A DNA stretch of 64,000 nucleotides from Cenarchaeum sp. (lineage in GTDB: Archaea; Thermoproteota; Nitrososphaeria; Nitrososphaerales; Nitrosopumilaceae). The notes beneath the pieces are model-generated. The model had not been told where the DNA came from, did not search any database, and was given only the letters and a program-made list of their open reading frames with translations. A program made the position numbers and the translations under genes. Location: the NCBI GenBank assembly GCA_965242695.1, contig CBDESU010000001.1:32001-96000 (forward strand), read 5' to 3'. Shown here piece by piece: positions 22,407 through 41,683 of the stretch (within the stretch, counting starts at the first letter, position 1; every line of letters begins with the position of its first letter).

Positions 22407-23339
22407 GCCCGCCTCTCTCCCCCTCTCGACCCGTCCGGCCGCGCTCCGCTTATCATCTGCCGTGTAAACAATTCTTAACAATCTTGTAAAAAACCTGTGA
22501 CTTGCTCTCCCGGGAGGCGCCGCCGAGGGCGGCCGCGCGCGGCCACATGGCCGCCGCCGTGCGCGGCTCCTGCCGGCAGCAGCGGCAGCAGGCTCAAGAA
22601 CGCCGGCTCGGGGGCCGCGCGGCCACATGGCCGCCGTCACGCGGCCTCAAGATGCCGGCGGAACGGGCCATGCCCTGGCATGCGCACTAGGCAGAGGGGC
22701 GGCGGCACGCCTAGGGAGGGGCATGCGGATGGGGGGGACCTGAGCTCATGCTGACCTCCACGTTGTTGCCCGCTCCACACGGCCGCATGTGATCCGCCGC
22801 CCTACCTCGGCGCATCGGGGCACCGCGCCGCCCCTAGCAGGGCCCTGCACTGATCGGCTCTCTGCATGGCGGCATCCCGTGGGCCCCGACGCGGCCGCTC
22901 CGGGGCCCCTGCGTGCGGGCTCCAGCCGCGGCGGGAAGGACGGAGGCGGGATGGAATCGCGCCGTCGCGGAGGCCGCCTGCGATGCATTGCCTGCGATGG
23001 CGAGCGGGGGAGGGGAGGGGGGGGGGGTGCCGCCGCGGCCGGTCGGCGCCAGATGATGCGACCACGGGGGGTGCCGCCGGCCGCGCTGCGCGCCCCGTGC
23101 GAGGCCCCAGCCGCCGGCCGCGAGCGACACCTCGACTTCCAGCCTGCACATCCCCGCGCCCGCGTCGACGACGCGATCGCACGGCCTGCGTGATGTTGCG
23201 CTGCGGGCTGGGCGTAACGGCCGCAATCGTGCCCCTGGCCGCGGCCGCTGGATCCCTGGGTCTGCGGCGCGGCGCCGGCGATGCAATCCCGGCACCGGCA
23301 GGCGCATGGGCTTATCAATGCGCCTAGGACGCCTTGCAC

Positions 23340-24709
23340 ATGGCTCCCCCCCGGCAGGTGATGGCCGGCGTCCCGCAGGCCGGGGCGAGCCAAAAGCTGC
23401 GGGTGCAGAGCACGGAGCTGACCCGCGTGACCCTGCGCAACTTCAAGGGCCATGAGGACCTGCGGCTCGACATGGGAAAGATCACCGTGCTGACAGGCCC
23501 GACGCGCTCGGGAAAGTCGACCGTCCTCCAGGCACTGAACCTGCTGAGATCGGCTCTCCGGGCAGGCAGTTTCGGCATGCTGGAGGGCGGCAGTCCAGAG
23601 TACGGCCACTTTGCGGATGTAGTCACCCGCAGGGACGACAGCCGCGACGTCGGCATTGCCGTAGAGGGGGCCCAAAAGATTCGCACAAGAGGGGGCGGCG
23701 ATGCGGCCGTCGACTTTGCGTACGACGTCTCGTTTGGAATCTCGCTGCGCCCCTCCAGCGTGCGCGCCACGGTCGACATGATGCGCGATCCGCCGCCGTC
23801 GACGGACGAAGGAATGCGGGTCGTGCACGTGTACGGCGCGGGTGAAAAAACCACCACCGTGTCCGGCACCGGGGCCACGGGGACTCGCCGGCTTCCGTGC
23901 CCGCAGACGGCGGGCTTGCGCCGCACATTGACATCAAGCTTGCAGAATGCCCCGCGACCCGTGCATTTCGGGACATGTTTAGCAACGGGGAGTTCTTCGA
24001 GTCCTTGCTGGGCGAGCTGTGGCACGTGCCCTTTTCAAGGGTCGTGACGTCCTACACACTCCCGCTCGAATACGCCGAGGACTTTTTGTCGCCAGACCGC
24101 ACGCGCGGGGCGGCATCGCTGGTCAGCCACATAAGTAGCGACCACTCTATCCAGGAGAAAATATCCGACATGATGCAGGAAATAGGACTCGGGAAGATAG
24201 TGGCCAGGAACGTGCCGGCCCCAAAGGGCGGGGGTGCGGAGCTTGCACTGGACTTTGTCGGGGACGACACGTTCAGCTCCATCGTGCACGAAGGATCCGG
24301 CCCAAACCAGCTCGTCAGCATGCTGGCAGTGCTGGCGTACTCGCCCAGGGGTGCCGTCGTAACCATCGAGGATCCCGAGATACACCTTGATCCGGCGGCC
24401 CAGGCGCGCCTCATGGGGATACTGGTGCGGCATGCGACGGAGGAGGACAAGCAGACAGTGTTTACCACCCACAGCGACCACCTGCTGTACCCACTGCTGG
24501 CATACGTTGCGAAGGAGGGATGCCCCCTTGCAAGCGGCGACGTCTCCATGCACTACTTCGACACAGACGGGTCGGGAAGAGTCGCGGGGGCCGAGCGCCT
24601 TGCCATAAACGAGCACGGGCAGATGCGGGGCGGACTCAGGGGGTTTTGGTACGCAGACGGCAGGGCGATGGGCGAAATCCTGGATCGTGGCGGGGACGGC
24701 CGTCGATGA
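23340..24709 (+). pseudogene. AAA_15/AAA_21-type ABC-like ATPase (DUF3696-like C-terminus), frameshifted at about 23846-23900
   Basis: First frame: LRNFKG...GPTRSGKS (Walker A). Second frame: EGSG, IEDPEIHLDP (Walker B/D-loop), TTHSDHLL. Confidence 0.8.
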
Positions 24710-24911
24710 AAGCGCCGGCGTGGATGCAATCGGAGGCAAGATGCCGCGCGGCAATCCTGGCAGGCGGCGACCTGCCCTGACCCGGGCCGCCAGATTCCGC
24801 CTTCCCCCATCTTGCCGGCACGGCGATCGCCAAAAAGCGCCGCGGCGCAGGGCGGAAGATCTGCACGGGGGGGGGGGGGGGGGGGCGTGGCTGTCCGTGT
24901 CGCTGCGCCGC

Positions 24912-30002: not shown

Positions 30003-30274
30003 GCGCGCCGGCGGCGCGCGGCATTTTATGTAGTGATCGCCGCGGCCCGTGCGGCCGCCGACACGTACCTGCCACATGTCTGGCCCGTGCGGCCCGCACC
30101 CTGCCTGCGTCGTGGGGGGGGGGGGTGTCCGGGTCGGGCTCCCGCGCGCGGCTGCTCTTGCCCTCCCCCCGGTGCGCGGGGTGCAGCCTGCGGGCAGGGA
30201 CATGCCGCATCCGCCGCCTGCCGGCACACCATGAGGTCGACTAGATTAAAAGTGGTTGGTGTGGGGCTCTGTCC

Positions 30275-31018
30275 GTGACATCTAGGCCGGGGCAGCGCGT
30301 GCAGAAGATCGTTCTGACCCGTAGCGGCAATCGTTGCGCATTGCCAGACTGCCGCCGGCCCCTGGTCATGTCGGGAACTGAGCGTGACCCGGCCGCGTTG
30401 ACGGCCCGGATTGCACACATAGCGGGCAACAGGATGGGATCGCCTAGGCACGACCCCGGCATGTCTGACAAGGAGAGGAACTCCGAGGACAACCTCATCG
30501 CCGTCTGCGCCAACTGCCACGACCGGATCGATGGCCAGCCCAACACGTACACCGTTTCCGAGCTGTGCAGGATCAAGTCTCTCCACGAGGCATGGGTGCT
30601 GAGCGAGCTGGGCCGCAGCATGCCCAAGGTAGACTTTCCCGAGCTCGAGCGGGCTGTACACCATGTCATGGCGTCCGAGGCCGGGCCGAGCAAACCCGAC
30701 GCACTATTGCCACCAAGGGATAAGATTGCCCGGAACCGACTCTCCGCCAGATCGGAGGCCCTGGTACTGCACGGGATGATGGCGTCAAGGCTGGTGAAAA
30801 AGTACATCAACGCATCGACGGATGCCCGGCTGGCGGGGCGCCTCAAGAACGGCCTTGGCCGGGAGTACGAGCGGAACAGGGGCGAGGGCTTGGAGGGCGA
30901 TGAGCTGTTCGATGCCATGGTCAGGTTTGTGGCCGGCACGGGGGACTTTGCGAGGGATGCGGCCGGCCTGGCGGTGCTGGTGCACTTCTTCGAGAGCTGC
31001 GAGGTGTTTGAAAAGTGA
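30275..31018 (+). CDS. lmuA: Lamassu/ABC-3C effector LmuA: HNH endonuclease plus C-terminal domain
   Basis: SGNRCALPDC...AHI...NSEDNLIAVCANCHDRID. C-terminus GDELFD...VLVHFFESCEVFEK. Confidence 0.85.
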   Translation: MTSRPGQRVQKIVLTRSGNRCALPDCRRPLVMSGTERDPAALTARIAHIAGNRMGSPRHDPGMSDKERNSEDNLIAVCANCHDRIDGQPNTYTVSELCRIKSLHEAWVLSELGRSMPKVDFPELERAVHHVMASEAGPSKPDALLPPRDKIARNRLSARSEALVLHGMMASRLVKKYINASTDARLAGRLKNGLGREYERNRGEGLEGDELFDAMVRFVAGTGDFARDAAGLAVLVHFFESCEVFEK

Positions 31019-31239
31019 TACTCCCAGACAAGCACATCACGGTGTCCAACTCGCTGCTAGGAGTGGGGGCGGTGCTGCTGGAGTCGATGCGACCCTCCCA
31101 GACAGTGACCGAACTGTGGGGCAGGACGCGGGCGCGCCCTGAGGTAAGGACGTTCGACAGGTTTGTACTGGGCCTCGACCTGCTGTTCATCCTCGGGGCT
31201 GTCAGCTACAGGAACGGAATGGTGGTGAAGGGAGGATGA
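31015..31239 (+). CDS. lmuC: ABC-three-component middle component (LmuC)
   Basis: MILPDKHITVSNSLLGVG...FVLGLDLLFILG; GTGA/ATGA overlaps with both neighbours. Confidence 0.85.
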   Translation: MILPDKHITVSNSLLGVGAVLLESMRPSQTVTELWGRTRARPEVRTFDRFVLGLDLLFILGAVSYRNGMVVKGG

Positions 31240-32987
31240 TCATCCGAGCCCTGCGCTCCGATCGAGAGACGTTTCGAACCGTGCGGTTCAAGGACGGCGC
31301 AAACGTGGTTTTGGGCGACAGGGCGCCAGACTCTGGCAAAAAAGACACCCGAAACGGCCTAGGCAAGTCGGCAATGCTTGAGATTATCAGCTTTTGCCTG
31401 GGCGGGAACATGGGCGAGACGCTCAAGAGGAGGGAGGTGAAAGGGTGGACATTCACGCTTGACGTGGAACACGGCGGGAGGGCGTTCAGCGTCAGCCGCG
31501 GCACCGGCGACAACGCGGTCGAGATAGCAGGCGACACCTCCGGTTGGCCCTCAAGTCTGGCCGGCGACGGCACGCTTGTGCGGGACGGGGTGCGCGTCGG
31601 GATCGACGACTACAACCGTGACATGGGCCGGATGCTGTACGGCTTGGAATCGCACAGCGCACTTCGCTACAGGCCGACGTTCCGGAGTCTCATCTCGTAC
31701 CGCGTTCGGCAGGGCGGCAAGCACGGCGGCTACCACTCGCCCTTCCAGAGCTTTCACATACAGGCGGCGACCTGCGTCCAAGTCAACAACGCCTACATGC
31801 TGGGCCTAGACTGGGAGGCCGGGGCGCGGCTACACTATCTAGCCGAGCGCAAAAAGCAGCTGCGTGATATCGAAAGGGCCATGAGTGACGGGGTGCTGTC
31901 GGACCTGGTCGGCAGCATAGGAGACATAGAGGCAATCTTAATCAGGCTCGAGGACAAGGCGCGCAGGGAAAAGGATGCCATAGACCGGTTCCGCGTCCAC
32001 GACCGGTACCGGGATCTTGAGTCGGAGGCCAACGGCCTGACAGAGTCGATCCACGGCCTAGTCAACGAGAGGTTCGCGATGGGGCAGGCGTCTGACATGT
32101 ACAGGGACAGCCTAGAGGAAGAAAGCGATGCGACGCCCGAACAGGTACTTGCAGTCTACAGGGAGGCCGACGTGCTGTTTCCCGACTCGGTTCGGAAGGG
32201 ACTGGAGGAGGCGCGTGCATTCCATGCCGCCATCGTCCGCAACAGACGCGGCTTTCTGGGATCCGAGATCGACAGGCTGGGAGGCGAGATGTCCAAGAGG
32301 GACCTGCAGATAGACGAGCTTGGGGCGAGGCGGGCCGCCGTCATGGGGATACTCCGGACGCACGGGGCCATCGACGAGCTCGTCCGGCTGCAGGAGCGCC
32401 ACAACGCGACGGCGTCCGAGCAGGCGGACGCGGCCAACAAGCTGGCCCAGCTCAAGAAGATCGACGAGGAGAAGACGGATATAGATGCCCGCATGAACAA
32501 TCTGCGACGTGATGCGACGATCGACTTTGACGAGCGCCGTGATCGGCGGAAGGCGGCAATCCTGGCATTCAACGACTACTCAAAGCGCCTGTACAGGGCG
32601 CCTGGCAAGCTGGTCATCGATATAAAAGACGGGCTGTACCGCTTCAACGTAGAGATCGAGCGGTCCGGCAGCAGCGGCATTGGCAGCATGAAGATATTCT
32701 GCTACGACATGATGCTGGCAGGGTTGTGGGCCGGGCGGCCCAATTCGCCTGGATTTCTCGCGCACGACAGCGACCTGTTTGAGGGGGTCGACTCTAGACA
32801 GACCGCCAAGGCGCTAGGCCTTGCCGCAACCGAGTCGGCGGAGCGCCAATTCCAGTACATCTGCACGATGAACATGGATGATGTCCCGCACGACGACTTT
32901 GACAAGGGATTCGACTTTGACTCGCTCGTGGCCGAGACGCTCACGGACAGGGATGCGGGCGGCAGCCTGCTCGGCATCAGGTTCTAG
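31236..32987 (+). CDS. lmuB: DUF2326 SMC-like ABC ATPase (LmuB)
   Basis: TRNGLGKS Walker A, coiled coil, SSG...KIFCYD, FLAHDS, FQYICTMN, LLGIRF terminus. Confidence 0.9.
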   Translation: MIIRALRSDRETFRTVRFKDGANVVLGDRAPDSGKKDTRNGLGKSAMLEIISFCLGGNMGETLKRREVKGWTFTLDVEHGGRAFSVSRGTGDNAVEIAGDTSGWPSSLAGDGTLVRDGVRVGIDDYNRDMGRMLYGLESHSALRYRPTFRSLISYRVRQGGKHGGYHSPFQSFHIQAATCVQVNNAYMLGLDWEAGARLHYLAERKKQLRDIERAMSDGVLSDLVGSIGDIEAILIRLEDKARREKDAIDRFRVHDRYRDLESEANGLTESIHGLVNERFAMGQASDMYRDSLEEESDATPEQVLAVYREADVLFPDSVRKGLEEARAFHAAIVRNRRGFLGSEIDRLGGEMSKRDLQIDELGARRAAVMGILRTHGAIDELVRLQERHNATASEQADAANKLAQLKKIDEEKTDIDARMNNLRRDATIDFDERRDRRKAAILAFNDYSKRLYRAPGKLVIDIKDGLYRFNVEIERSGSSGIGSMKIFCYDMMLAGLWAGRPNSPGFLAHDSDLFEGVDSRQTAKALGLAATESAERQFQYICTMNMDDVPHDDFDKGFDFDSLVAETLTDRDAGGSLLGIRF

Positions 32988-32996
32988 CCGGGCAGA

Positions 32997-33103
32997 GGTG
33001 CGCATGCGATCAACCTGGGGCGCGCCTGCGAGTTGATGCCCGCCGTCCTTGCCGCCCCGACCCCCCGGGTGCGCATGCGATCAACCTGGGGCGCGCCTGC
33101 GAG
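32997..33103. repeat. 36-bp direct repeat x2 with a 35-bp spacer
   Basis: GGTGCGCATGCGATCAACCTGGGGCGCGCCTGCGAG at 32997 and 33068. Confidence 0.9.
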
Positions 33104-33344
33104 CCATGTTCCGGGACATGGCGGTACGCCGGCGGCTCGCGCCCGGGCATGCCGCAGGAGATGTTGGCTACAGGCCGAAGGCACGAGGGCATAGTTCGTG
33201 TGTATGGCGCGCAGCATGGATGGCAGGCCGCGACCCGCATCGCATCATGAGCGCGCCGTGCATGGCCGTGTCCGGCGGCGGCGCCACCTGCGCACCGCCG
33301 GCGGGTCGGCCGGTGCGCCTAGACGGGGGCATGCCGGCGGGACG

Positions 33345-33780
33345 CGATCCCGTGCGGGCAACGGCGAAGTTATATACGACAAATCTGGCCCGCGAAATCG
33401 AAACATGTCCTACGACTCGGCCGACGTAGCGCCATCACGCGTAGCGCCGCCCCTACTGGGGGGGGGGGGGTGGCAGGAGCTGCGGGATGCGATCTCGTGC
33501 GGGCAACGGCGAAGTTATATACGACAAATCTGGCCCGCGAAATCGAAACATGTCCTACGACTCGGCCGACGTAGCGCCATCACGCGTAGCGCCGCCCCTA
33601 CTGGGGGGGGGGGGGGGGGGGGGGTGGCAGGAGCTGCGGGATGCGATCTCGTGCGGGCAACGGCGAAGTTATATACGACAAATCTGGCCCGCGAAATCGA
33701 AACATGTCCTACGACTCGGCCGACGTAGCGCCATCACGCGTAGCGCCGCCCCTACTGGGGGGGGGGGGTGGCAGGAGCGG
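33345..33780 (+). repeat. Triplicated promoter + ATG + poly-G cassette (G13, G22, G12)
   Basis: AAGTTATATAC box and ATGTCCTACGAC at 33405, 33550 and 33704; periods 145 and 154 bp. Confidence 0.95.
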
Positions 33781-36700
33781 CGGGACGGCGCGGCCTGCCG
33801 TCCTTTACGCCGCATCAATAGCTGCCGTGGCGGTGCTGGCCGCGGCTGCGGCCTTGGCGCCGCCAGACGGATCGGGGACCGCATTCGCGCAGCATGCCGA
33901 CGGGATCACCTGCCCGTCGGCGGCGGCCGGCTCTGAATGCGTGTACCACGTCACGGACGCGCTTGCCATACGGGACATAAAGCCCACCGTCATACGGGTC
34001 GACCCCGACACGGGATACGTGTACGTGTCCACCGTCCCCCATGCGGGCTCGAGGGACTTCAACTACTCGTACCTCAACGCGTACAACAGCTCGGCCAACG
34101 GCTACCTCCCCATCGCCGAGTTCAGGTTTGACGAGGGGATCAACACCCGCATCGCGGACTTTGAGATCAACAGCCGGACGAACGAGCTGCACGTGGTCCA
34201 CACGTGGGGCCTGGGCGACCCGTCCGAGGGGTGGACGGGGCAGAGCCATGACGGCCAGGGGAGGGCCAACCTGACGACGATAGACCTGGAGACACACGAG
34301 ATATCGAAGACGATCCGGCTCTACTACAACGAGACGACCCCGCTGCCCGGCTGGAGCCTTTGGGGCACCGACCGGTTCTTGATACACGACATCGCGCTCG
34401 ACAGGGAGCGCGATCTCGCGTACATCGGCGCCGAGCGCGCCCCCATACTGGTCGTCGACACGAGCACGACGACGCTGGTGCCCGCCACGGTGAACCGCAC
34501 CGGCACCAACAGCGGGGACGACGGGTGGAACGCGTACGCGGTCGGCACCATATCGATGAGCATGTCAGTCGACGAGGACTCGGGGCTCGTGTACGCCGGC
34601 GTGGTCGTCGGCAACAAGCTTGACGACCTGCATGCGTCGTGGGGCATTGCGGCGCTCAACTTTACGGGCGCGAACGGCTCGGCGACGGCACACTACGAGC
34701 GAGTCGCATTCCACAACGTATCGTCGCAGCAGGCGCCAAGCGATCCCTGGCCATGCTCCAACTACTACAGCTACAGCTGCGACGTATGGGACCTGTCGGG
34801 AGAGGGCGCTAGGGATGCGCGCATCGAGGCCATCCGCCTTGACGGGCCGAACGACAAGCTGTTCGCGCTGTACGAGAACCACACCGTGTGGGCCGTGCCC
34901 CTCGGCGGGGACGGGCTCCCGTCCGGCGCGATGACGGCGGTCCACATTCGGACGCCGGAGGAAGAGGGCCGGCGCGACGACGCGAGCATCCACGACATTG
35001 CGCTCGACTCGCAGAGGGGGCTGCTGTACGCATCCCTGCGCGACTATACAGACCCGCGCGTGATCGTAATGGACTCTGCCACGGAGGCCCGCGTGGGGGT
35101 CGCATCGACGACGAGCGAGCCCTGGGACATGGGGATCAACCCCGCCGACGGGTCCGTGTACGTGCTGCCGCTGTGGGCGCTCGGCGCGTACGTCATCGAG
35201 GCCGAGCCGAGGACCGGCCTGCAAAAGGCGATCGATGCCGCGCCGGCCGGCGCCACGGTGGTGGTCGAGCCCGGAACGTACGCCAACGCGGTCCTCGACA
35301 TAAACAAGTCGCTGACCCTGACGACTGCCACCGGCGAGCCGGGCGCCGCAAAGTTCACGGGGTACTCGCGCATCGAGGTCGAGGCCGACGACGTGGCCGT
35401 CAGGGGGCTCGTGTTCGAGGATACGGACTGCATGCCGGGCTTTGGCGGGTCGCTCGTCGAGATCAGGACGCACAACGGCATTACGCGGGAGAACGTCACG
35501 ATCGAGGGCAACGTGTTCCGCGACACGTGCCATGCGGCGATCCAAAAGGAGGGCCGCGGCGACGTGGCCGGCATCAGCATCCGGAACAACACGTTCGTGA
35601 ACATCGGGCTGCGACTCGATCCGGGCATGGCGGGGCCGCTCGACACCGGGGGCGAGAGCGAGTTTCAGATCATGCACGGCGCGATCGGGCTGGCGCACCA
35701 CCCCAACCAGAACACGGTCAGCGGCAACATAACCGGCAACTACATCAGCGGCACGAGCGCGGCCGGCATTCGCGTGTTCAACGCGCACGACATGGTCATA
35801 TCGGACAACTACATCGCCGACACCCCCGCGAGCGCGATCGGGCTGGCGCACAACCCGCAGAACGTCGTGGTCCGCAACAACACGATCGTCGGCGCCAACA
35901 GCGAGCCCGACCTGGACTACATCGGGGGCATCGAGGGCAGCGGCGATGCGGACTACTGGCAGTTCCTCAGGACGTACAGCATCATCCTAGAGTCGGACAC
36001 CCTGTCGCAGGACCACCCGCTGCACGGCGACGGCAAGCCGGCGCCGGACGCGGCCATCAACGTGTGGTCCGACGGCGAGGACATACGGGTCGAGGGAAAC
36101 ACCATACGGGACAGCGACGGGGCCTTTACGATATGCACCGGCGTGTGCGCGTTCGAGAGCGACGGGAACGTGCGCGGGGGCGACGAGAACGGGCATGCGG
36201 GCTGGCCGCCGAACACGCCGGACATACGCAACATACCGTTCGACAGGAACATTACGGATGCCCGGTTTGTGTTTGCCGACAACGTCGTGCACGCCTACAA
36301 CGGCACGGACAACAACGGCGCGCTCGTGCGGAGCGACACGATCGGCGAGCTCGACGCGTCCGGCAACACGTTCGTCGGGTGCGGCGCGGGCATGGCCGGC
36401 CGGCCGGTCCCGACGTTCGGCAACGTGACCACAGGCTCGGCCGTGTACGAGGATGCGGGGTGCGAGTACGAGTACCACGTCACGCGCACGCTCGGCGTCG
36501 GCGACATCATACCGCATATGGTCGCGGTAGACGAAGAGACGGGGTACGTGTATGTCGCCAACACGCCCCACCTGGGCACGCGCGACCAGGACTACTCGCA
36601 CCTGCGCATATACGACGGGGGCACGGGAGAGGCGCTCGGCGACATCCGCTTCAACGGGACAAACTCGCGCATATCCGATGTCGAGGTCGCCGGCGGAACG

Positions 36701-39700
36701 GTGTACGTCGCCCACATGTGGGGCATTGGTGACAGCTCTCTGGGATGGGACGGCCGCATGTGGAACGGGGACGGACTGATGAACCTGACGGCGATCGAGG
36801 CCGGCTCGTACGAGGTGCTCGGCACGATCGAACTGGTGCACGGGGACGGCGCCGGACAGAACGCGACAAGGGGCGTGATATCCGACCTGGCCCTCGATCC
36901 GCTCAGGAGCAGGGCGTACGTCTCGACCGCAAGCGAGGGGCCCGTGCTCGCCGTCGACGTGTCCGATCCCGGTTCGATGATGCTGATGTACACGGCTGCC
37001 GGAAACGCCAGCGCGGGCGAGTGGAGCCCGTACGGCGCAGCCGGCCCCGCGTCGGCGCTCGCCGTCGACAACGGCACGGGCATGGTGTACGCGGCAGCCC
37101 GCGTCGGCGACAGGGACGACAGCACCCTGCACTCTTGGGGGATCGCGATGCTGGACTTTGGCGCCGGCGGCGCCTTTGGGCCAAACTACACGCGCGCGCA
37201 CTTTCTGAACATGTCGGCAAACCCCGCGCCGGATCCCGCGGAAGAGTGCGGGGGCGACTACAACCGGCACCCGTGCAACGAGGACGTCCTGGTCGAGTCG
37301 CTGCTGCTCGACGCGGCCGGCGGCAGGCTGCTTGCCCTGTACGCAAACCACTCCGTGTGGGCGTTCGGCCTCGACGGCGCGGGCTATCCTGCCAACTACA
37401 CCGAGGTCGACGTGAGGCAGCGGGATCCCGCGCCCGGAAGCTACGAGGACGGCTACGGCAGAAGCCGAGACCACAACCAGATCAGCGACATCGCGCTGGA
37501 CGGCGAGCGGAGGCTCCTGTACGCATCGCTCCACGACTTTGCAAACCCGCGGGTCGCCGTGATCGACGCCGACACGCACGAGCGGGTCGGCCTGGCCTCT
37601 ACGAGCAGCCAGGCCTCAAGCCTTGGACTGGATGCGAGGACGGGGGCGGTATACGCGCTGCCGCAGTGGACGCCGAACGCGTACGTGATAGAGGCTGCCG
37701 CAAAGACCCGCCTGCAGTCCGTAATCGACGGCGCCCTGCCGGGCGAGGCGGTGAGGCTGCTGCGGGGCACGCACGACGATACCGTCCTGGACGTGACGCG
37801 GCCGCTGACGCTCGCATCGGCATCCGACCTGCCCGGCTCGGTGACCTTTACGGGGTACTCGCGCATCGAGGTAGAGGCCGACAACACCGCCATACGCAGC
37901 CTGTCCTTCAGGGACACGGACTGCATGCCCGGCCTGGCCGCCTCGCTCGTCGAGATACGGACGTACGGCAACGACTACACGCGCAGCAACGTCACAGTGG
38001 AGGGCAACGCGTTCAGCGACACGTGCCACGCGGCGGTGCAGCAGGAGGGGGTAGGCCGCCTCGACAACGTCCAGGTGCGGGGCAACACGTTCGTAAACAT
38101 AGGCCTAAAGGTTCCCGACGGCAGGATGCAGCCGATCGACACGGGCGGCGAGAACGAGTTCCAGCTCTTCCACGGCGCGATCGGCCTGGCCCACCACCCG
38201 TCCCAGATGCCCGTGAGCGGAGTCGTCGCCGACAACCGCATAGTAAACACGAGCGCGGCCGGCATACGGGTGTTCAACGCCGACGGCATGGCCATAACGG
38301 GCAACTACGTCGAGGGCACCCCGGCGAGCGGCATCGGGCTTGCGCACGGGCCGAGCAACACCGCCGTCGCAAACAACACGCTCGTGCGGACCAACAGCGA
38401 GCCGAACCTGGACTACCTGGACGGAATCGAGGGCAGCGGCGAGCCGGGCTACTACGGGTTCATCAACTTTGACCGCCCCAACCCGCACGCCTACCTGGGC
38501 CTGCAAAAGGTCAGGGACGGCCCGCCGTACGCCGTGCCGTCGCCCGATGCGGCCGTCAGCGTCTGGGCCGGCGCCGTGAACGTCAGCGTCACCGGAAACA
38601 CCATACGGGGCAGCGACGGCGCATTCACGGTCTGCACCGGAGTGTGCGCGTTCGAGAGCGACGGGCCGGTCCGCGACAACCCGCGCAACGTGCCTTCCAA
38701 CGACGTGCCGGTGAACGAGCAGGTGCGGTTCGCCGGCAATACCATACACGCGCACAACGGGACGGACAACAACGGCAGGCTGGTGCGCAGCTATGCGCTC
38801 GGCACGCTGGATGCGACGGGCAACACGTTTGTGGGCATTGATGCGGCCGGCGCCGCCGCCGGGATGGTGAGGGCCGATGCGGGCGGCGAGCCGATCGGAA
38901 CGGCCGTCGTTGCAGCATTCGTCTCGCCGGGCAGGATACTTGCAATCTACGGCGCGCCGCTCGGCCCGCCGGCCGGGCATGCGGGCCCCGTGTACGGCAG
39001 CGTCACCGGACCGGGCGGCCTGGACGAGGCGCCCGCCGGCGAGTCGGGCCTCTACACCAAGGTGCACGCGATCGAGATCGGCGGGGACGGCGTGGACTCC
39101 ATGCAGAGCGGCACGATCGCGCTCAGCGTCGACTTGGAGGGCATCGATCGAAGTGGAACACACTATGCCTTCCGCGGCGACTCGATACCCGTAAGGCCGA
39201 GCGGCACGAACGCGGCGGCAGCGTCTGCCGCATTCACGTCGCCCGGCACGGCCCGGATCGTGTACGGCGCGCCGCTGGCCGCGTCCGCGTCCGACTATAC
39301 TGGCCTGCGCGTGGGGCCCCTGAACGCATCGGCCGCCGTACTGGGCGTGTCTGGGTCGGGCACCGCGGCCCATACCCTGTCGATCAAGTCCGACTATGCG
39401 GTAACGGCGGCGACGGCCGGCTACATCGACATTGCGCCGCTGGCGCTGCTGCCGGACGGAGGCCTGTTTGCAGGCGCCGACGGCCTGCCGATTGGCAGCG
39501 GCCTGGGGGCGGGAACGACCGCCGTTGCGCCTCCGGGATCTGATCCCTTTGTGATCGAGGCGGACACCTTTGCAGACTCGCTCAACGGCACCGGCAGCGC
39601 GGCGATCCGCGTGCCGGGCGGCGCGATCCCCGCCGTGAACTTTACGGTGTCTATGGAAGCGGCCACCATCACGTTCGCATCGAGGACGAGCATTACCGAC

Positions 39701-41683
39701 AGGGGCACGGGCATGCCGTACGAGGGGCCGATCAACGTCACGGTGGCGGCAGCGGAGAGGCGGGCGGCGGCCGCAGGCGCGCTCGGCGTCGCAGGCGACT
39801 CGGGCCGGATCGGCATCGTCGTGGAGATCGGCGATCCGAACGCGGACATTGCGCTCGACCGCCCGGCGCGCATACTGCTCGCCGGCCAGCCGGCGCCGGC
39901 CGACGTGTACCACATGGACAGCATGGGGACCGTGGCCAGGATCGCCGAGTGCGGCGATGCGGCGGCCGGCCCGGCCGGATGGCTGGCCGACAACCGCGAC
40001 AGCGTGCCGTTCTGCCATACGGTGGAGGGCGGGGCGGAGGCCGGCACGGGCGACTATGCGATCTACACGTACCGCCTCAGCGCATTCTTCGTCGTAGGCG
40101 AGGACGACGACGGCGGCACGGGCGGCGGCGGCGGCCCGGCGCCCGCGGTGTCCCGGGTCGAGCCGGCGAGCGCCAGCGGGACGTACGGGGAGGGCGAGGC
40201 GATCAGCATCGCAGTCGTGTTTACAGAGGGCGTCAACGTGACGGGCACGCCGCTGCTCGAGCTCGAGACGGGCGCAGTGGACCGGAACGCTACGTACGCC
40301 TCGTCAGACTCTGCGACGCTGATGTTCCGGTACGTGGTTCAGCGGGGCGACGCCACAATGGACCTGGGGTACACCGGCACGGACGCGCTGGCGCTCAGCG
40401 GCGGCGCGATCCGGGATGCCGACGGCAACGATGCAATCCTGGCACTTCCGGCACCCGGATCGCCGGGCTCGCTCTCGCACTCTGGCGACATTGCGATCGA
40501 TGCGCCCAACCGCTTGGTGCAAAGGATGACGGCCGTCCTGGTCGTCCCGGATGCGCCCCCGCCGGAGACTCGGGAGCCTCCGGCGCCGCAGGTCGTCGCA
40601 GCGCCGCCGCTTGCGCCGTTCGGAGGCGGCGGAGGCGGCGGCGGCGGCGGCGGGGGCGGCGCGCGTATCATGGCGGACGGCACCGGCCAGGTGATCCTCT
40701 ACTCGGCCGCATGGGACTGCAACGAGGGCACGATCCGAATAACTGCCAGCGACGCGGCCGGCGCCGACGTTAGCATCCTCTCGTCGGCCGGCGCGGTCGC
40801 CGCAAGAACGTCCGACGGGCCGCACCCAGAGGGCCGCACCGTCTACGAGGCGCCCCTCCCAGAGGATGCGATACTGTCGATCAGGGCCGCTGCGGTAGAC
40901 GGCAGGACAATGTCGACTGCGACAGAGGCGGTGCGGACGGGCGGGCAGTGCACGGGCGAGGCCGTGTTCAGGGCGTACGGAATGCCTGCCGACGCCGCGC
41001 AGCCGGAATCGGCCGACCGGGAGAGCCCGGCAGGCGAGCCGCCGACGTCCGATCGCCCTGATGCGCCTGAAGACCGGGAGAGCCCGGCAGGCGAGCCGTC
41101 GACGGCCGATCGCCCTGATGCGCCCGAAGACAAGGCGAAGGGGCAGTCCGACATGCCGCCGCCGCCCCGCGATCCGGACGAGGATGCGCCCGGTGCGGCT
41201 GATGCCGATCGCGTTGCGCCGCCAGCCGAGGCGCCGGCATCCTCCGAGCCTGATGCGCCCGGTGCCGAGGGCGACGACGAGGGCGGCTGCCTGATCGCGA
41301 CTGCCGCGCACGGGACAGAGATGGCCCCGCAGGTGCAGCGCCTGCGCGAGGTTCGCGACGGCACGCTCTTGACGACAGAGTCTGGCAGGGCGTTCATGGC
41401 CGCGTTCGGCTCTGCGTACTATGCATTCTCGCCGCAGGTGGCGGATCTGGAGCGCGAGCACCCGGCGTTCAGGCAGGCCGTCGCCGCGCTTGCCGCGCCG
41501 ATGCTGCTTGCGCTGCAGGTCGTCGATGCGGCCGAGCCCGGGTCAGAGCACAGCGTCGCAGCGTACGGCGCGCTGGCGATCGCACTCGTCATGGGCATGT
41601 ACGTCGCGGCGCCGGCAGCCGGCATGGGGTATGCGATCCGCCTTGCCCGGGGCGGGGGCGGCCTCTGCAAGCCACGTGTGTAG
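33704..41683 (+). CDS. Giant surface protein: signal peptide, 2x (beta-propeller + right-handed beta-helix), Ig-like module, CFI-box-CTERM
   Basis: YVTN-like blades (VDPDTGYVYV). LQKAIDAAPAGATVVVEPGTY followed by N-x-I/F parallel beta-helix repeats. GGCLIATAAHGTEMAPQVQRLREVRD near the end. Confidence 0.88.
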   Translation: MSYDSADVAPSRVAPPLLGGGGGRSGGTARPAVLYAASIAAVAVLAAAAALAPPDGSGTAFAQHADGITCPSAAAGSECVYHVTDALAIRDIKPTVIRVDPDTGYVYVSTVPHAGSRDFNYSYLNAYNSSANGYLPIAEFRFDEGINTRIADFEINSRTNELHVVHTWGLGDPSEGWTGQSHDGQGRANLTTIDLETHEISKTIRLYYNETTPLPGWSLWGTDRFLIHDIALDRERDLAYIGAERAPILVVDTSTTTLVPATVNRTGTNSGDDGWNAYAVGTISMSMSVDEDSGLVYAGVVVGNKLDDLHASWGIAALNFTGANGSATAHYERVAFHNVSSQQAPSDPWPCSNYYSYSCDVWDLSGEGARDARIEAIRLDGPNDKLFALYENHTVWAVPLGGDGLPSGAMTAVHIRTPEEEGRRDDASIHDIALDSQRGLLYASLRDYTDPRVIVMDSATEARVGVASTTSEPWDMGINPADGSVYVLPLWALGAYVIEAEPRTGLQKAIDAAPAGATVVVEPGTYANAVLDINKSLTLTTATGEPGAAKFTGYSRIEVEADDVAVRGLVFEDTDCMPGFGGSLVEIRTHNGITRENVTIEGNVFRDTCHAAIQKEGRGDVAGISIRNNTFVNIGLRLDPGMAGPLDTGGESEFQIMHGAIGLAHHPNQNTVSGNITGNYISGTSAAGIRVFNAHDMVISDNYIADTPASAIGLAHNPQNVVVRNNTIVGANSEPDLDYIGGIEGSGDADYWQFLRTYSIILESDTLSQDHPLHGDGKPAPDAAINVWSDGEDIRVEGNTIRDSDGAFTICTGVCAFESDGNVRGGDENGHAGWPPNTPDIRNIPFDRNITDARFVFADNVVHAYNGTDNNGALVRSDTIGELDASGNTFVGCGAGMAGRPVPTFGNVTTGSAVYEDAGCEYEYHVTRTLGVGDIIPHMVAVDEETGYVYVANTPHLGTRDQDYSHLRIYDGGTGEALGDIRFNGTNSRISDVEVAGGTVYVAHMWGIGDSSLGWDGRMWNGDGLMNLTAIEAGSYEVLGTIELVHGDGAGQNATRGVISDLALDPLRSRAYVSTASEGPVLAVDVSDPGSMMLMYTAAGNASAGEWSPYGAAGPASALAVDNGTGMVYAAARVGDRDDSTLHSWGIAMLDFGAGGAFGPNYTRAHFLNMSANPAPDPAEECGGDYNRHPCNEDVLVESLLLDAAGGRLLALYANHSVWAFGLDGAGYPANYTEVDVRQRDPAPGSYEDGYGRSRDHNQISDIALDGERRLLYASLHDFANPRVAVIDADTHERVGLASTSSQASSLGLDARTGAVYALPQWTPNAYVIEAAAKTRLQSVIDGALPGEAVRLLRGTHDDTVLDVTRPLTLASASDLPGSVTFTGYSRIEVEADNTAIRSLSFRDTDCMPGLAASLVEIRTYGNDYTRSNVTVEGNAFSDTCHAAVQQEGVGRLDNVQVRGNTFVNIGLKVPDGRMQPIDTGGENEFQLFHGAIGLAHHPSQMPVSGVVADNRIVNTSAAGIRVFNADGMAITGNYVEGTPASGIGLAHGPSNTAVANNTLVRTNSEPNLDYLDGIEGSGEPGYYGFINFDRPNPHAYLGLQKVRDGPPYAVPSPDAAVSVWAGAVNVSVTGNTIRGSDGAFTVCTGVCAFESDGPVRDNPRNVPSNDVPVNEQVRFAGNTIHAHNGTDNNGRLVRSYALGTLDATGNTFVGIDAAGAAAGMVRADAGGEPIGTAVVAAFVSPGRILAIYGAPLGPPAGHAGPVYGSVTGPGGLDEAPAGESGLYTKVHAIEIGGDGVDSMQSGTIALSVDLEGIDRSGTHYAFRGDSIPVRPSGTNAAAASAAFTSPGTARIVYGAPLAASASDYTGLRVGPLNASAAVLGVSGSGTAAHTLSIKSDYAVTAATAGYIDIAPLALLPDGGLFAGADGLPIGSGLGAGTTAVAPPGSDPFVIEADTFADSLNGTGSAAIRVPGGAIPAVNFTVSMEAATITFASRTSITDRGTGMPYEGPINVTVAAAERRAAAAGALGVAGDSGRIGIVVEIGDPNADIALDRPARILLAGQPAPADVYHMDSMGTVARIAECGDAAAGPAGWLADNRDSVPFCHTVEGGAEAGTGDYAIYTYRLSAFFVVGEDDDGGTGGGGGPAPAVSRVEPASASGTYGEGEAISIAVVFTEGVNVTGTPLLELETGAVDRNATYASSDSATLMFRYVVQRGDATMDLGYTGTDALALSGGAIRDADGNDAILALPAPGSPGSLSHSGDIAIDAPNRLVQRMTAVLVVPDAPPPETREPPAPQVVAAPPLAPFGGGGGGGGGGGGGARIMADGTGQVILYSAAWDCNEGTIRITASDAAGADVSILSSAGAVAARTSDGPHPEGRTVYEAPLPEDAILSIRAAAVDGRTMSTATEAVRTGGQCTGEAVFRAYGMPADAAQPESADRESPAGEPPTSDRPDAPEDRESPAGEPSTADRPDAPEDKAKGQSDMPPPPRDPDEDAPGAADADRVAPPAEAPASSEPDAPGAEGDDEGGCLIATAAHGTEMAPQVQRLREVRDGTLLTTESGRAFMAAFGSAYYAFSPQVADLEREHPAFRQAVAALAAPMLLALQVVDAAEPGSEHSVAAYGALAIALVMGMYVAAPAAGMGYAIRLARGGGGLCKPRV

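Follow-up and report, generated by a model that had tools for sequence, protein, structure and literature searches.

A threefold promoter, start codon and poly-G cassette heads a giant surface-protein gene in a sponge-associated archaeon and may act as a slipped-strand switch

The window discussed here is a stretch of 64,000 nucleotides (nt) from the genome of a sponge-associated archaeon of the genus Cenarchaeum. At 33337-33785 of the window, three tandem copies of a small cassette, each consisting of a TATA-like box, an ATG and an uninterrupted run of G's, precede an open reading frame (ORF) of 2659 codons that encodes a putative surface protein. The three runs are G13, G22 and G12 in the assembled sequence, and the giant ORF is in frame with the third ATG alone, as the original prediction had it. 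The reading favoured here, on balance, is that the poly-G tracts form an on/off switch in which slipped-strand changes in tract length act on the frame between a near-leaderless start codon and the export signal of the giant protein. The features on which this reading is built are as follows (window coordinates; X1, X6 and X8 are public sequencing runs).

33336..33344, forward strand: 9-mer GGCGGGACG, a microhomology at the upstream border of the array; read from the sequence, the same 9-mer occurs again at 33779-33787
33337..33785, forward strand: tandem array of the promoter/start/poly-G cassette, with units of 145 and 154 nt and a final partial unit
33369..33377, forward strand: TATA-like box of cassette 1 (GTTATATAC), 10.3 bits on the genome's own promoter profile, implied transcript start (+1) at 33400
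33405..33407, forward strand: ATG1, opening an out-of-frame ORF of 107 codons with its stop at 33728
33458..33470, forward strand: poly-G tract 1, G13, where contigs two bases shorter (X8) and three bases shorter (X6) align
33514..33522, forward strand: TATA-like box of cassette 2, from the core match and the profile, implied +1 at 33545
33550..33552, forward strand: ATG2, opening an out-of-frame ORF of 128 codons
33603..33624, forward strand: poly-G tract 2, G22 by homopolymer count, its length taken from the assembly alone
33668..33676, forward strand: TATA-like box of cassette 3, from the core match and the profile, implied +1 at 33699, leaving a 5-nt leader
33704..33706, forward strand: ATG3, the sole start in frame with the giant ORF as assembled
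33757..33768, forward strand: poly-G tract 3, G12, between ATG3 and the signal peptide, with G11 variants in X6, X8 and X1
33704..41683, forward strand: giant ORF of 2659 amino acids, with two beta-helix (NosD-like) modules and a C-terminal anchor (Pfam, NCBIfam)
33773..33889, forward strand: predicted export signal, read from the translation, with a basic n-region (R24, R30), a hydrophobic core at residues 32-52, and A-F-A then Q at residues 60-63
41288..41503, forward strand: CFI-box-CTERM domain (NCBIfam NF041770), residues 2529-2600; a hydrophobic stretch and then a basic tail come after it

A tandem-repeat search (TRF) reports one array at this site, with a period of 154 nt, 3.0 copies, 92% matches and a score of 789. 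Within it, a core of 101 nt recurs with 0 mismatches at exactly three sites (33369, 33514 and 33668), and none of 100 shuffles matched it. This core is composed of GTTATATAC, 27 nt, the ATG, 17 further codons (18 including the ATG) and the first 12 G's, ending in CCCCTACT plus G12. Repeat searches show copies 2 and 3 to be 100% identical across 154 nt, and copy 1 to differ from them at defined bases (88% in ungapped register). Outside its run, a unit has 132 nt, of which 53 nt extend from the ATG up to the run and 79 nt separate the run from the following ATG, and the start-to-start spacings of 145 and 154 nt are both a multiple of 3, plus 1. All three runs are pure and longer than the ~8 nt of homopolymer needed for slippage. 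Apart from one 34-nt poly-G match, no cassette DNA was found in the genome beyond the locus itself. The predicted threefold arrangement with its three tract lengths is borne out by the TRF array, the exact core and the homopolymer counts, and the measured spacings agree with the claim that the units are each one base off a multiple of 3. The two copies of GGCGGGACG that border the array are the footprint expected of a microhomology duplication, and it is plausible that the array arose between these direct repeats.

The cassette box can be compared with the promoters of the genome that carries it. Ahead of ATGs with an open frame of 100 codons or more, TATA-like boxes are found at distances of 29-31 nt in 40, 35 and 47 cases (122 in total), against roughly 1 to 14 cases at most other distances, and across 937 ORF-proximal ATGs the upstream A+T content is highest at -30 to -23. 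Thus, many genes of this genome look leaderless. On a profile built from 271 of the genome's own AT-box promoters, which were picked by A+T content and make the comparison partly circular, the cassette box scores 10.3 bits, above both the median (8.5) and the 75th percentile (10.1) of the training set; 0.07% of 200000 random genome positions score as high. The TATA element was originally taken for a promoter, and this score supports it as a predicted one. The implied transcript starts at 33400, 33545 and 33699 each lie 5 nt before an ATG, with the box at -36 to -28, and the cassette appears to have a 5-nt leader, unlike the modal form, which has none. On reading of the sequence, no Shine-Dalgarno-like motif precedes the cassette ATGs.

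The giant protein is matched by the Pfam families Beta_helix (2.4e-13), NosD (5.6e-07) and Chondroitinas_B (2.5e-06), and its C-terminal domain by NF041770 (E 8.2e-19, 67.2 bits against a cut-off of 40). At the other end, all 12 homologs from the protein database align with it over the 21-residue hydrophobic core and at the AxA-Q motif. These features suggest a Sec-type export signal and a protein that would be exported and anchored at its C-terminus on the cell surface. Between tract 3 and the hydrophobic core there is no in-frame ATG, and the sole alternative starts are GTGs at +58 and +64, both inside the core; export would therefore depend on reading through the G-run. For 11 of the 12 homologs, the start assigned by gene callers, and not by experiment, is a Met that precedes the core by 2-10 residues. 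It would seem that the present gene no longer has a start of its own and relies on a cassette ATG that is read through the run. The 5' G-run is best regarded as a feature of the nucleotide sequence as opposed to a need for glycine, because an internal stretch of 13 Gly in the same gene (window 40622-40660) is encoded by mixed GGA, GGC and GGG codons with no long G-run.

The consequences of changes in tract length were worked out by varying the three run lengths in silico and scoring the frame opened from each ATG.

Runs as assembled (13, 22, 12), or (1, 1, 0) modulo 3: ATG3 is the only productive start
Run 3 at G13: all three starts are closed, after 107, 90 and 77 codons
Run 3 at G11: ATG3 is closed after 38 codons, and a frame of 2710 codons opens from ATG2
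Run 2 at G21: ATG2 is productive in addition

Across a cassette, TAGs at 33726 and 33741 close one of the three frames; the other two are open. In silico, ATG2 joins the giant ORF when tract 2 is G21 or G24, or when tract 3 is G11 or G14; with G11 in tract 3 the frame from ATG2 stays open, as 22+11 is divisible by 3 and cassette 3 has no stop in that frame. Loss of one G, which had been expected to bring copy 2 into frame, does so as G21 in run 2, and the further claim that any one-base change in copy 3 switches the gene off stands for a gain (G13), the only single-base change in tract 3 that closes all three starts, and fails for a loss (G11) if ATG2 is used. Over the 27 combinations of length classes modulo 3, at least one ATG is open in 13, as opposed to 1 in 3 for a single cassette. 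At tract 3, as in a contingency locus, a one-unit change alters the frame between the start and the protein.

Tract lengths and cassette number also differ between populations, as judged from the contigs, and not the reads, of four public sequencing runs. X6 and X8 belong to one study and X6 may be the source sample, and the two are not independent. Depths were summed over multi-mapping contigs and were not used as copy numbers, and homopolymer error was uncontrolled. In X1, a contig of 794 nt joins 33457 directly to 33758 and thereby holds one cassette, with a G11 run that is predicted to be OFF from its ATG; the contig differs at 9 other letters (~1% divergence). Tandem repeats usually interrupt graph assembly, and this through-contig therefore argues for a single cassette in X1, with simplification by the assembler as another possible source of it. 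In X6 and X8, contigs end exactly at 33380, the last 31-mer that holds the copy-1-specific base 33350. Only units with a junction-type flank force a branch in a 31-mer graph at this point, as would be the case if such units are present in X6 and X8. Cassette copy number is polymorphic: the assembled population has the triplication, and at least one other population lacks it.

At tract 3 (33757), contigs one base shorter account for a depth of 24 of 572 in X6 and 220 of 1424 in X8, while at tract 1 (33458) contigs three bases shorter in X6 and two bases shorter in X8 account for 47.6 of 268 and 70.5 of 167, respectively. The G22 run is bridged by no short-read contig (records appear to break at 33590-33637), and its length is known from the assembly alone. 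Single-copy tracts nearby vary as well: the one at 30114 is G11 (one base shorter) at full depth in X1 and X8, the one at 24867 is one base longer in X6 and eight shorter in X1 and X8, and the one at 23016 is one base longer in X6. At the level of contigs, tract lengths differ both between and within public runs, although minor-length contigs do not set heterogeneity within a population apart from sequencing error, and homopolymer errors could create some of them. Poly-G tracts of the window beyond the array lie at 23017, 24867, 30114, 52292, 59910 and 60349. A further difference between populations concerns an ATPase-like ORF, split in this assembly, that is headed by an ATG and then a C7 run at window 23341-23353. 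This tract has one C fewer in X8 and in X9, a further public run, and one G more is found at 23878 in X1, X8 and X9, so that populations differ in the frame over ~530 nt.

The locus belongs to a much larger set. The genome (G000 among the five genomes of the genus compared here) comprises 3.89 Mb in two contigs, C1 and C2, with 67-68% G+C. Homopolymers of G number 970 for G6, 142 for G7, 26 for G8 and 15 for G9, and then 28, 28, 24 and 18 for G10, G11, G12 and G13, and those of C behave likewise; G/C runs of at least 10 nt total 223, with a modal length of 10-12. The gene calls against which these runs were placed are crude, namely 2517 stop-to-stop ORFs scored by codon usage, in which the upstream stop, as opposed to the true start, serves as the 5' bound. 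This bound has a sense run within 300 nt in 22 of the 39 ORFs of at least 2000 codons, in 15 of the 102 ORFs of 1000-2000 codons and in 56 of the 2376 smaller ones, so that ORFs of at least 1000 codons (37 of 141) differ from the rest by an odds ratio of 14.7 (p 4e-24). No tract, sense or antisense, falls inside the 388 kb of the largest-gene bodies. By simple arithmetic, the heads of the 141 largest ORFs hold ~49 run-gene pairings, where a uniform spread would give ~1% of the 223 runs and a uniform spread over intergenic DNA at most ~7. By the same crude calls, 136 of the 223 tracts are intergenic or partly so. The tie between G-runs and giant genes that had been suggested for this locus is, in this sense, a strong concentration at giant-gene 5' ends across the genome.

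The tracts are also oriented. They read G on the forward strand over C2:0.69-1.68 Mb and C1:0-1.0 Mb and C elsewhere, and the strand agrees with the replichore in 199 cases and disagrees in 24, a fit that is inflated because the replichore boundaries were drawn from the tract pattern itself. The agreement extends to runs away from gene heads (74:12 for runs far from any same-strand gene head, and 18:6). Co-orientation with the replichore is 52-54% for ordinary genes and 38 of 39 for the largest. The only Orc1/Cdc6 match (C2:701295) lies beside one of the strand-switch points, and if this site is the origin, the G-run would be on the lagging-strand template. MutS domain V was found in none of the five genomes of the genus by a search whose control matched 11 of 14 known genomes, and NucS_C gave weak matches in two of the five. 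A lack of MutS-type repair would favour slippage, and it would leave unexplained why only the large genomes are rich in runs. Tandem arrays that hold a tract number 10 of 652, with at least two tracts in 3 of them, and 14 of the 223 tracts lie within arrays that make up 3.5% of the genome. With an enrichment of only 1.8-fold, G-runs as general drivers of tandem duplication were not adopted as an explanation and are kept as a weak possibility.

The heads of other giant genes in this genome carry tracts in several layouts. Paralogs of the giant protein have head tracts at C1:849125/849241, C1:2006421/2006531/2006697, C2:1422802 and C1:1026212, and in several of them a TATA-like box is followed, ~30-36 nt on, by a short ORF that crosses the G-run and terminates just ahead of the main gene's separate ATG or in overlap with it. 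At C2:1422802, an ORF of 25 codons passes through G11 and ends in a TGA overlapping the main ATG (ATGA); at C1:2006421, the short ORF (TAA/TGA after the tract) ends 17 nt before the main ATG; and at C1:849241, a TGA directly follows G13 and the main ATG lies 48 nt on. This layout (C2:1422700-1423100, C1:2006000-2006900 and C1:848950-849700) suggests a switch of the termination-reinitiation type. Other giant surface-protein genes, ~40 kb beyond the window, have one or two tracts of different kinds at C1:135658/135762, 144382 and 150343/150446. There, one tract comes directly after the TATA box, in contrast to the present locus, where the whole promoter-ATG-tract unit occurs three times and the gene is of a different (beta-helix, CFI-box-CTERM) family. 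The arrangement TAAATAATAC-Gn-CGCCGCCAACGGAGC, with the run directly after the TATA box, is a conserved family of its own (C1:135658, 150343, 266171 and 828696, and C1:2070328 on the minus strand) in which a second run lies ~100 nt downstream. A call of ON or OFF for all 37 tract-bearing giant genes was abandoned, as it needs transcript starts.

Within the genus, the abundance of runs follows genome size. Windows of G11, counted on both strands, number 464-554 in the three large genomes (G000, G002 and G004; 3.2-3.9 Mb) and 12 and 33 in the two small ones (G001 and G003; 1.8-2.0 Mb), and the small genomes have no match to the first 599 residues of the giant protein. G004 encodes a full-length collinear homolog with 46-87% identity in tblastx segments. 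Its flanks are non-syntenic and only the gene itself is collinear, and no orthology is claimed. The homolog (G004:C1, ~50.4-50.6 kb) has its own two-unit tandem cassette, with G11 and G15 at a spacing of 135 nt, both in frame; a box ACATATACGAC is followed 31 nt on by TTG, and the promoter core ATATACGAC is common to this cassette and the present locus. In wider searches, the exact 28-nt cassette pattern had 0 matches in JGI metagenome contigs, a protein-guided scan of the same contigs returned one locus of 25% identity that was not useful, and a protein-guided scan of species-representative genomes, a set in which close relatives may be missing, confirmed no homolog.

The organism itself, judged from its genes and from the samples in which it occurs, is an archaeal ammonia oxidiser associated with sponges. 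The archaeal host that had been assumed for the locus is confirmed by the archaeal 16S and 23S rRNA genes in the window, which are the only two Rfam matches there, and by the single archaeal amoA of the genome (AmoA, E 2e-118). Ten public runs are listed with this stretch, all of them sponge metagenomes or coded organisms, from four studies. The two contigs overlap at both ends: the end of C1 equals the start of C2 (C2:1-12526) at 100% over 12.5 kb, and the end of C2 matches the start of C1 (C2:1646426-1675135 against C1:1-28698) at 96.5% identity over 28.7 kb. The chromosome is thus probably one circle, and the assembly mixes two strain variants at a giant repetitive gene. The overlapping ends had been considered as a within-genome measure of tract instability, and this was dropped because, at 3.5% divergence, the difference in two of three tracts says little.

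Two observations concern the DNA just upstream of the array. A perfect 36-nt direct repeat, unique in the genome, lies in intergenic DNA at 32997-33032 and 33068-33103, 71 nt apart, and short-read contigs break at it. The two genes directly before it (window 30245-32984) match parts of ABC-three-component systems (DUF2326 5e-36, CTD10, HNH).

The favoured mechanism can now be stated in full. In each unit, an archaeal TATA-type promoter would be followed by a start codon ~5 nt past the predicted transcript start, and 18 codons would then lead into an uninterrupted G-run. The protein would be made and exported only when a cassette ATG is read in frame through the run or runs that follow. Runs of at least 10 G's would gain or lose bases by slipped-strand mispairing at replication, and such slippage may be the cause of the length differences between populations. 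The length of the last run modulo 3 would then set the gene ON, as with the assembled G12, or OFF. The upstream cassettes, now out of frame, could add alternative starts, and if ATG2 or ATG1 is used the protein would gain 51 or ~100 N-terminal residues. The cassettes could also serve as homologous substrates for unequal recombination that changes their number. In this mechanism the locus would be one member of a genome-wide set of sense-strand G-runs that head giant surface-protein genes, and the ON/OFF effect on the protein may be of benefit to the cell. Transcripts from promoters 1 and 2 would probably be translated from their own 5' ATG, out of frame, across ATG3. The original notion of a multi-state contingency locus is upheld as far as slippable tracts in the sole path from start to export are concerned; an adaptive, multi-state role for the triplication is possible but unproven. 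A broader version of the mechanism, offered tentatively and with more doubt than belief, is that the ~220 tracts form a replication-oriented set of poly-G switches, the first homopolymer "phasome" in Archaea, with this locus as its most elaborate member. The hypermutability of three serial tracts, together with unequal recombination among cassettes, would here give the adhesin more than two states (OFF, ON, and ON with the 51- or ~100-residue extension, from one to three promoters), and the array would act as a small combinatorial counter and not as a simple toggle.

Several observations weigh against a frame switch of this kind. Some lie at the locus: the cassette ATG is 5 nt further from its box than the modal leaderless spacing of the genome, out-of-frame translation across ATG3 from promoters 1 and 2 could equally be harmful, and the evidence from public runs is at contig level, where homopolymer errors could give some of the minor-length contigs. 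Others come from its relatives, in that 11 of 12 have a main ORF with its own Met after the position of the tract, and the tract of the close paralogs at C1:849241 and C1:2006421 lies outside the main frame, in a short upstream ORF or leader. In each of three paralogs the ATG nearest the TATA box is out of frame, and an in-frame ATG is found upstream of the tract in only 11 of the 37 tract-bearing giant genes. The genome has only 3 tandem arrays with at least two tracts, and the multi-cassette design is therefore not a general feature. Nor is the sense orientation of the runs independent evidence, because the tracts and 38 of the 39 largest genes alike follow the replichore. In the other large genomes, a frame of at least 900 codons begins within 300 nt of none of 20 runs in G002 and of one of 19 in G004, with the homolog locus not counted and the runs taken as the first by position, not at random; no run was seen at the G002 homolog loci and the two other G004 homolog loci that were examined.

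Some of these points are what would be expected if the G-run acts in the leader, its length tuning transcription or initiation by termination-reinitiation of a short 5' ORF or by a promoter-proximal DNA or RNA structure, with the fusion to the giant frame being a secondary accident at this locus. The layouts at C2:1422802, C1:2006421 and C1:849241 are of this form, the called starts of 11 of the 12 homologs lie after the tract, and the separate TAAATAATAC-Gn-CGCCGCCAACGGAGC family has its tract directly after the TATA box. For the present gene, such a role appears rather unlikely: with no in-frame ATG after the tract, it would leave the export signal without a start. The fold of the cassette-3 leader RNA is unremarkable against shuffled sequences, of which 25 in 200 are as good (z -1.34), for which reason a structured RNA element there was rejected. 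A three-layer intramolecular quadruplex needs at least 15 nt, by our own reckoning, a length that G22 alone reaches and G12 and G13 do not.

A more sceptical interpretation is that the tracts and the triplication are tolerated mutational debris of a G+C-rich genome without MutS-type repair, and that no switching was ever selected. Runs of G would there expand, set off local duplications and persist in the least harmful places (intergenic DNA and gene heads), and the gene would happen to be intact in this strain and broken in others. The missing MutS domain V and the weak NucS_C matches are in keeping with this, as are the intergenic location of 136 of the 223 tracts and their near-absence from gene bodies, and the strand bias that follows the replichore away from gene heads points to a replication-linked process. 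At the locus, the 9-nt microhomology at the array borders and the single cassette of one run fit the same picture, and the 20 G002 tracts that were sampled show no link to giant genes. On the other hand, the small genomes of the genus also lack a MutS match yet have few tracts (33 and 12 G11 windows, against 464-554), and the ~49 placements at the heads of the 141 largest ORFs are far above either uniform expectation. The bimodal length distribution needs selection or a length threshold for expansion, and the mere 1.8-fold enrichment in tandem arrays indicates that tracts are not strong drivers of duplication. Taken together, these observations make debris an improbable account of the whole. 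Less probable still is that the three copies or the exact tract lengths are an artefact of assembly. It is true that short-read contigs leave G22 unbridged and that one run assembles a single cassette, that the contig ends overlap and yet differ (96.5% over 28.7 kb), as when more than one strain is assembled, and that X6 contigs are one base longer than the assembly at two nearby tracts. However, an array of 450 nt is far shorter than the reads needed to place 3.9 Mb in two contigs (long reads being deduced from this contiguity), and X6 and X8 contigs stop at 33380, the exact forced branch point. Moreover, defined bases set copy 1 apart from the other two, which would not be so for collapsed or inflated identical repeats, and a second species has a two-unit array of its own.

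Phase variation by homopolymer slippage is a textbook device of host-associated bacteria. For archaea, it had been claimed that such loci are scarcely described, and a search of openly available literature found no paper on homopolymer phase variation or contingency loci in Thaumarchaeota or Cenarchaeum, in agreement with that claim. A survey of 18 archaeal genomes states that poly(C)/poly(G) tracts are not closer to 5' ends (PMC2831843), a frameshift survey includes one thaumarchaeal genome and passes over it without comment (PMC3711429), and a 2025 review holds that multi-locus phase-variable genomes seem restricted to pathogens, with archaeal phylogenies still to be surveyed (PMC11868660). 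If the present locus is a clear case, it would extend the device to a third setting, an archaeon with an archaeal promoter and near-leaderless starts that lives as a mutualist or commensal of sponges. Were this true, it would suggest that life in an animal host selects for the same solution in both prokaryotic domains. The triplicated cassette would, in addition, be a natural experiment on how several tracts combine in series.

Among known systems, one of those that resemble the locus is the set of poly-G/C loci of Campylobacter jejuni, a bacterium that is not known to have MutS/MutL repair and whose genome has far fewer such tracts, a few dozen. As in C. jejuni, the homopolymers are uninterrupted, ~8-13 nt long and many per genome, and they lie in intergenic or 5' coding positions of genes for surface structures. 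Unlike in C. jejuni, the setting is an archaeon, the promoter is of the TATA type, the start is near-leaderless, the tracts number ~220, the targets are of 1000-8000 residues and the start cassette is present three times. In Neisseria, the opa genes have repeat tracts in the region of the signal peptide. The poly-G tracts of Neisseria hmbR and hpuA (PMC3786947) are in-frame repeats whose length modulo 3 sets the gene ON or OFF. In hmbR, hpuA and opa, as in the present gene, the repeat lies within the frame between the start codon and the export signal or mature protein; a Neisseria gene has a single tract, and its promoter and start are not known to be duplicated, whereas here three tracts stand in series and the state depends on sums of their lengths. 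Homopolymers in promoters, such as the C-stretch of Bordetella fim and the poly-G of Treponema pallidum tpr and tp0126, tune transcription. These promoter tracts resemble the TAAATAATAC-Gn family of this genome and differ from the cassette, in which the tract lies 53 nt downstream of the ATG and not in the promoter. Ultimately, three features set this locus apart: its cassette is triplicated, the gene has apparently lost the start that it once had, and the copy number is polymorphic.

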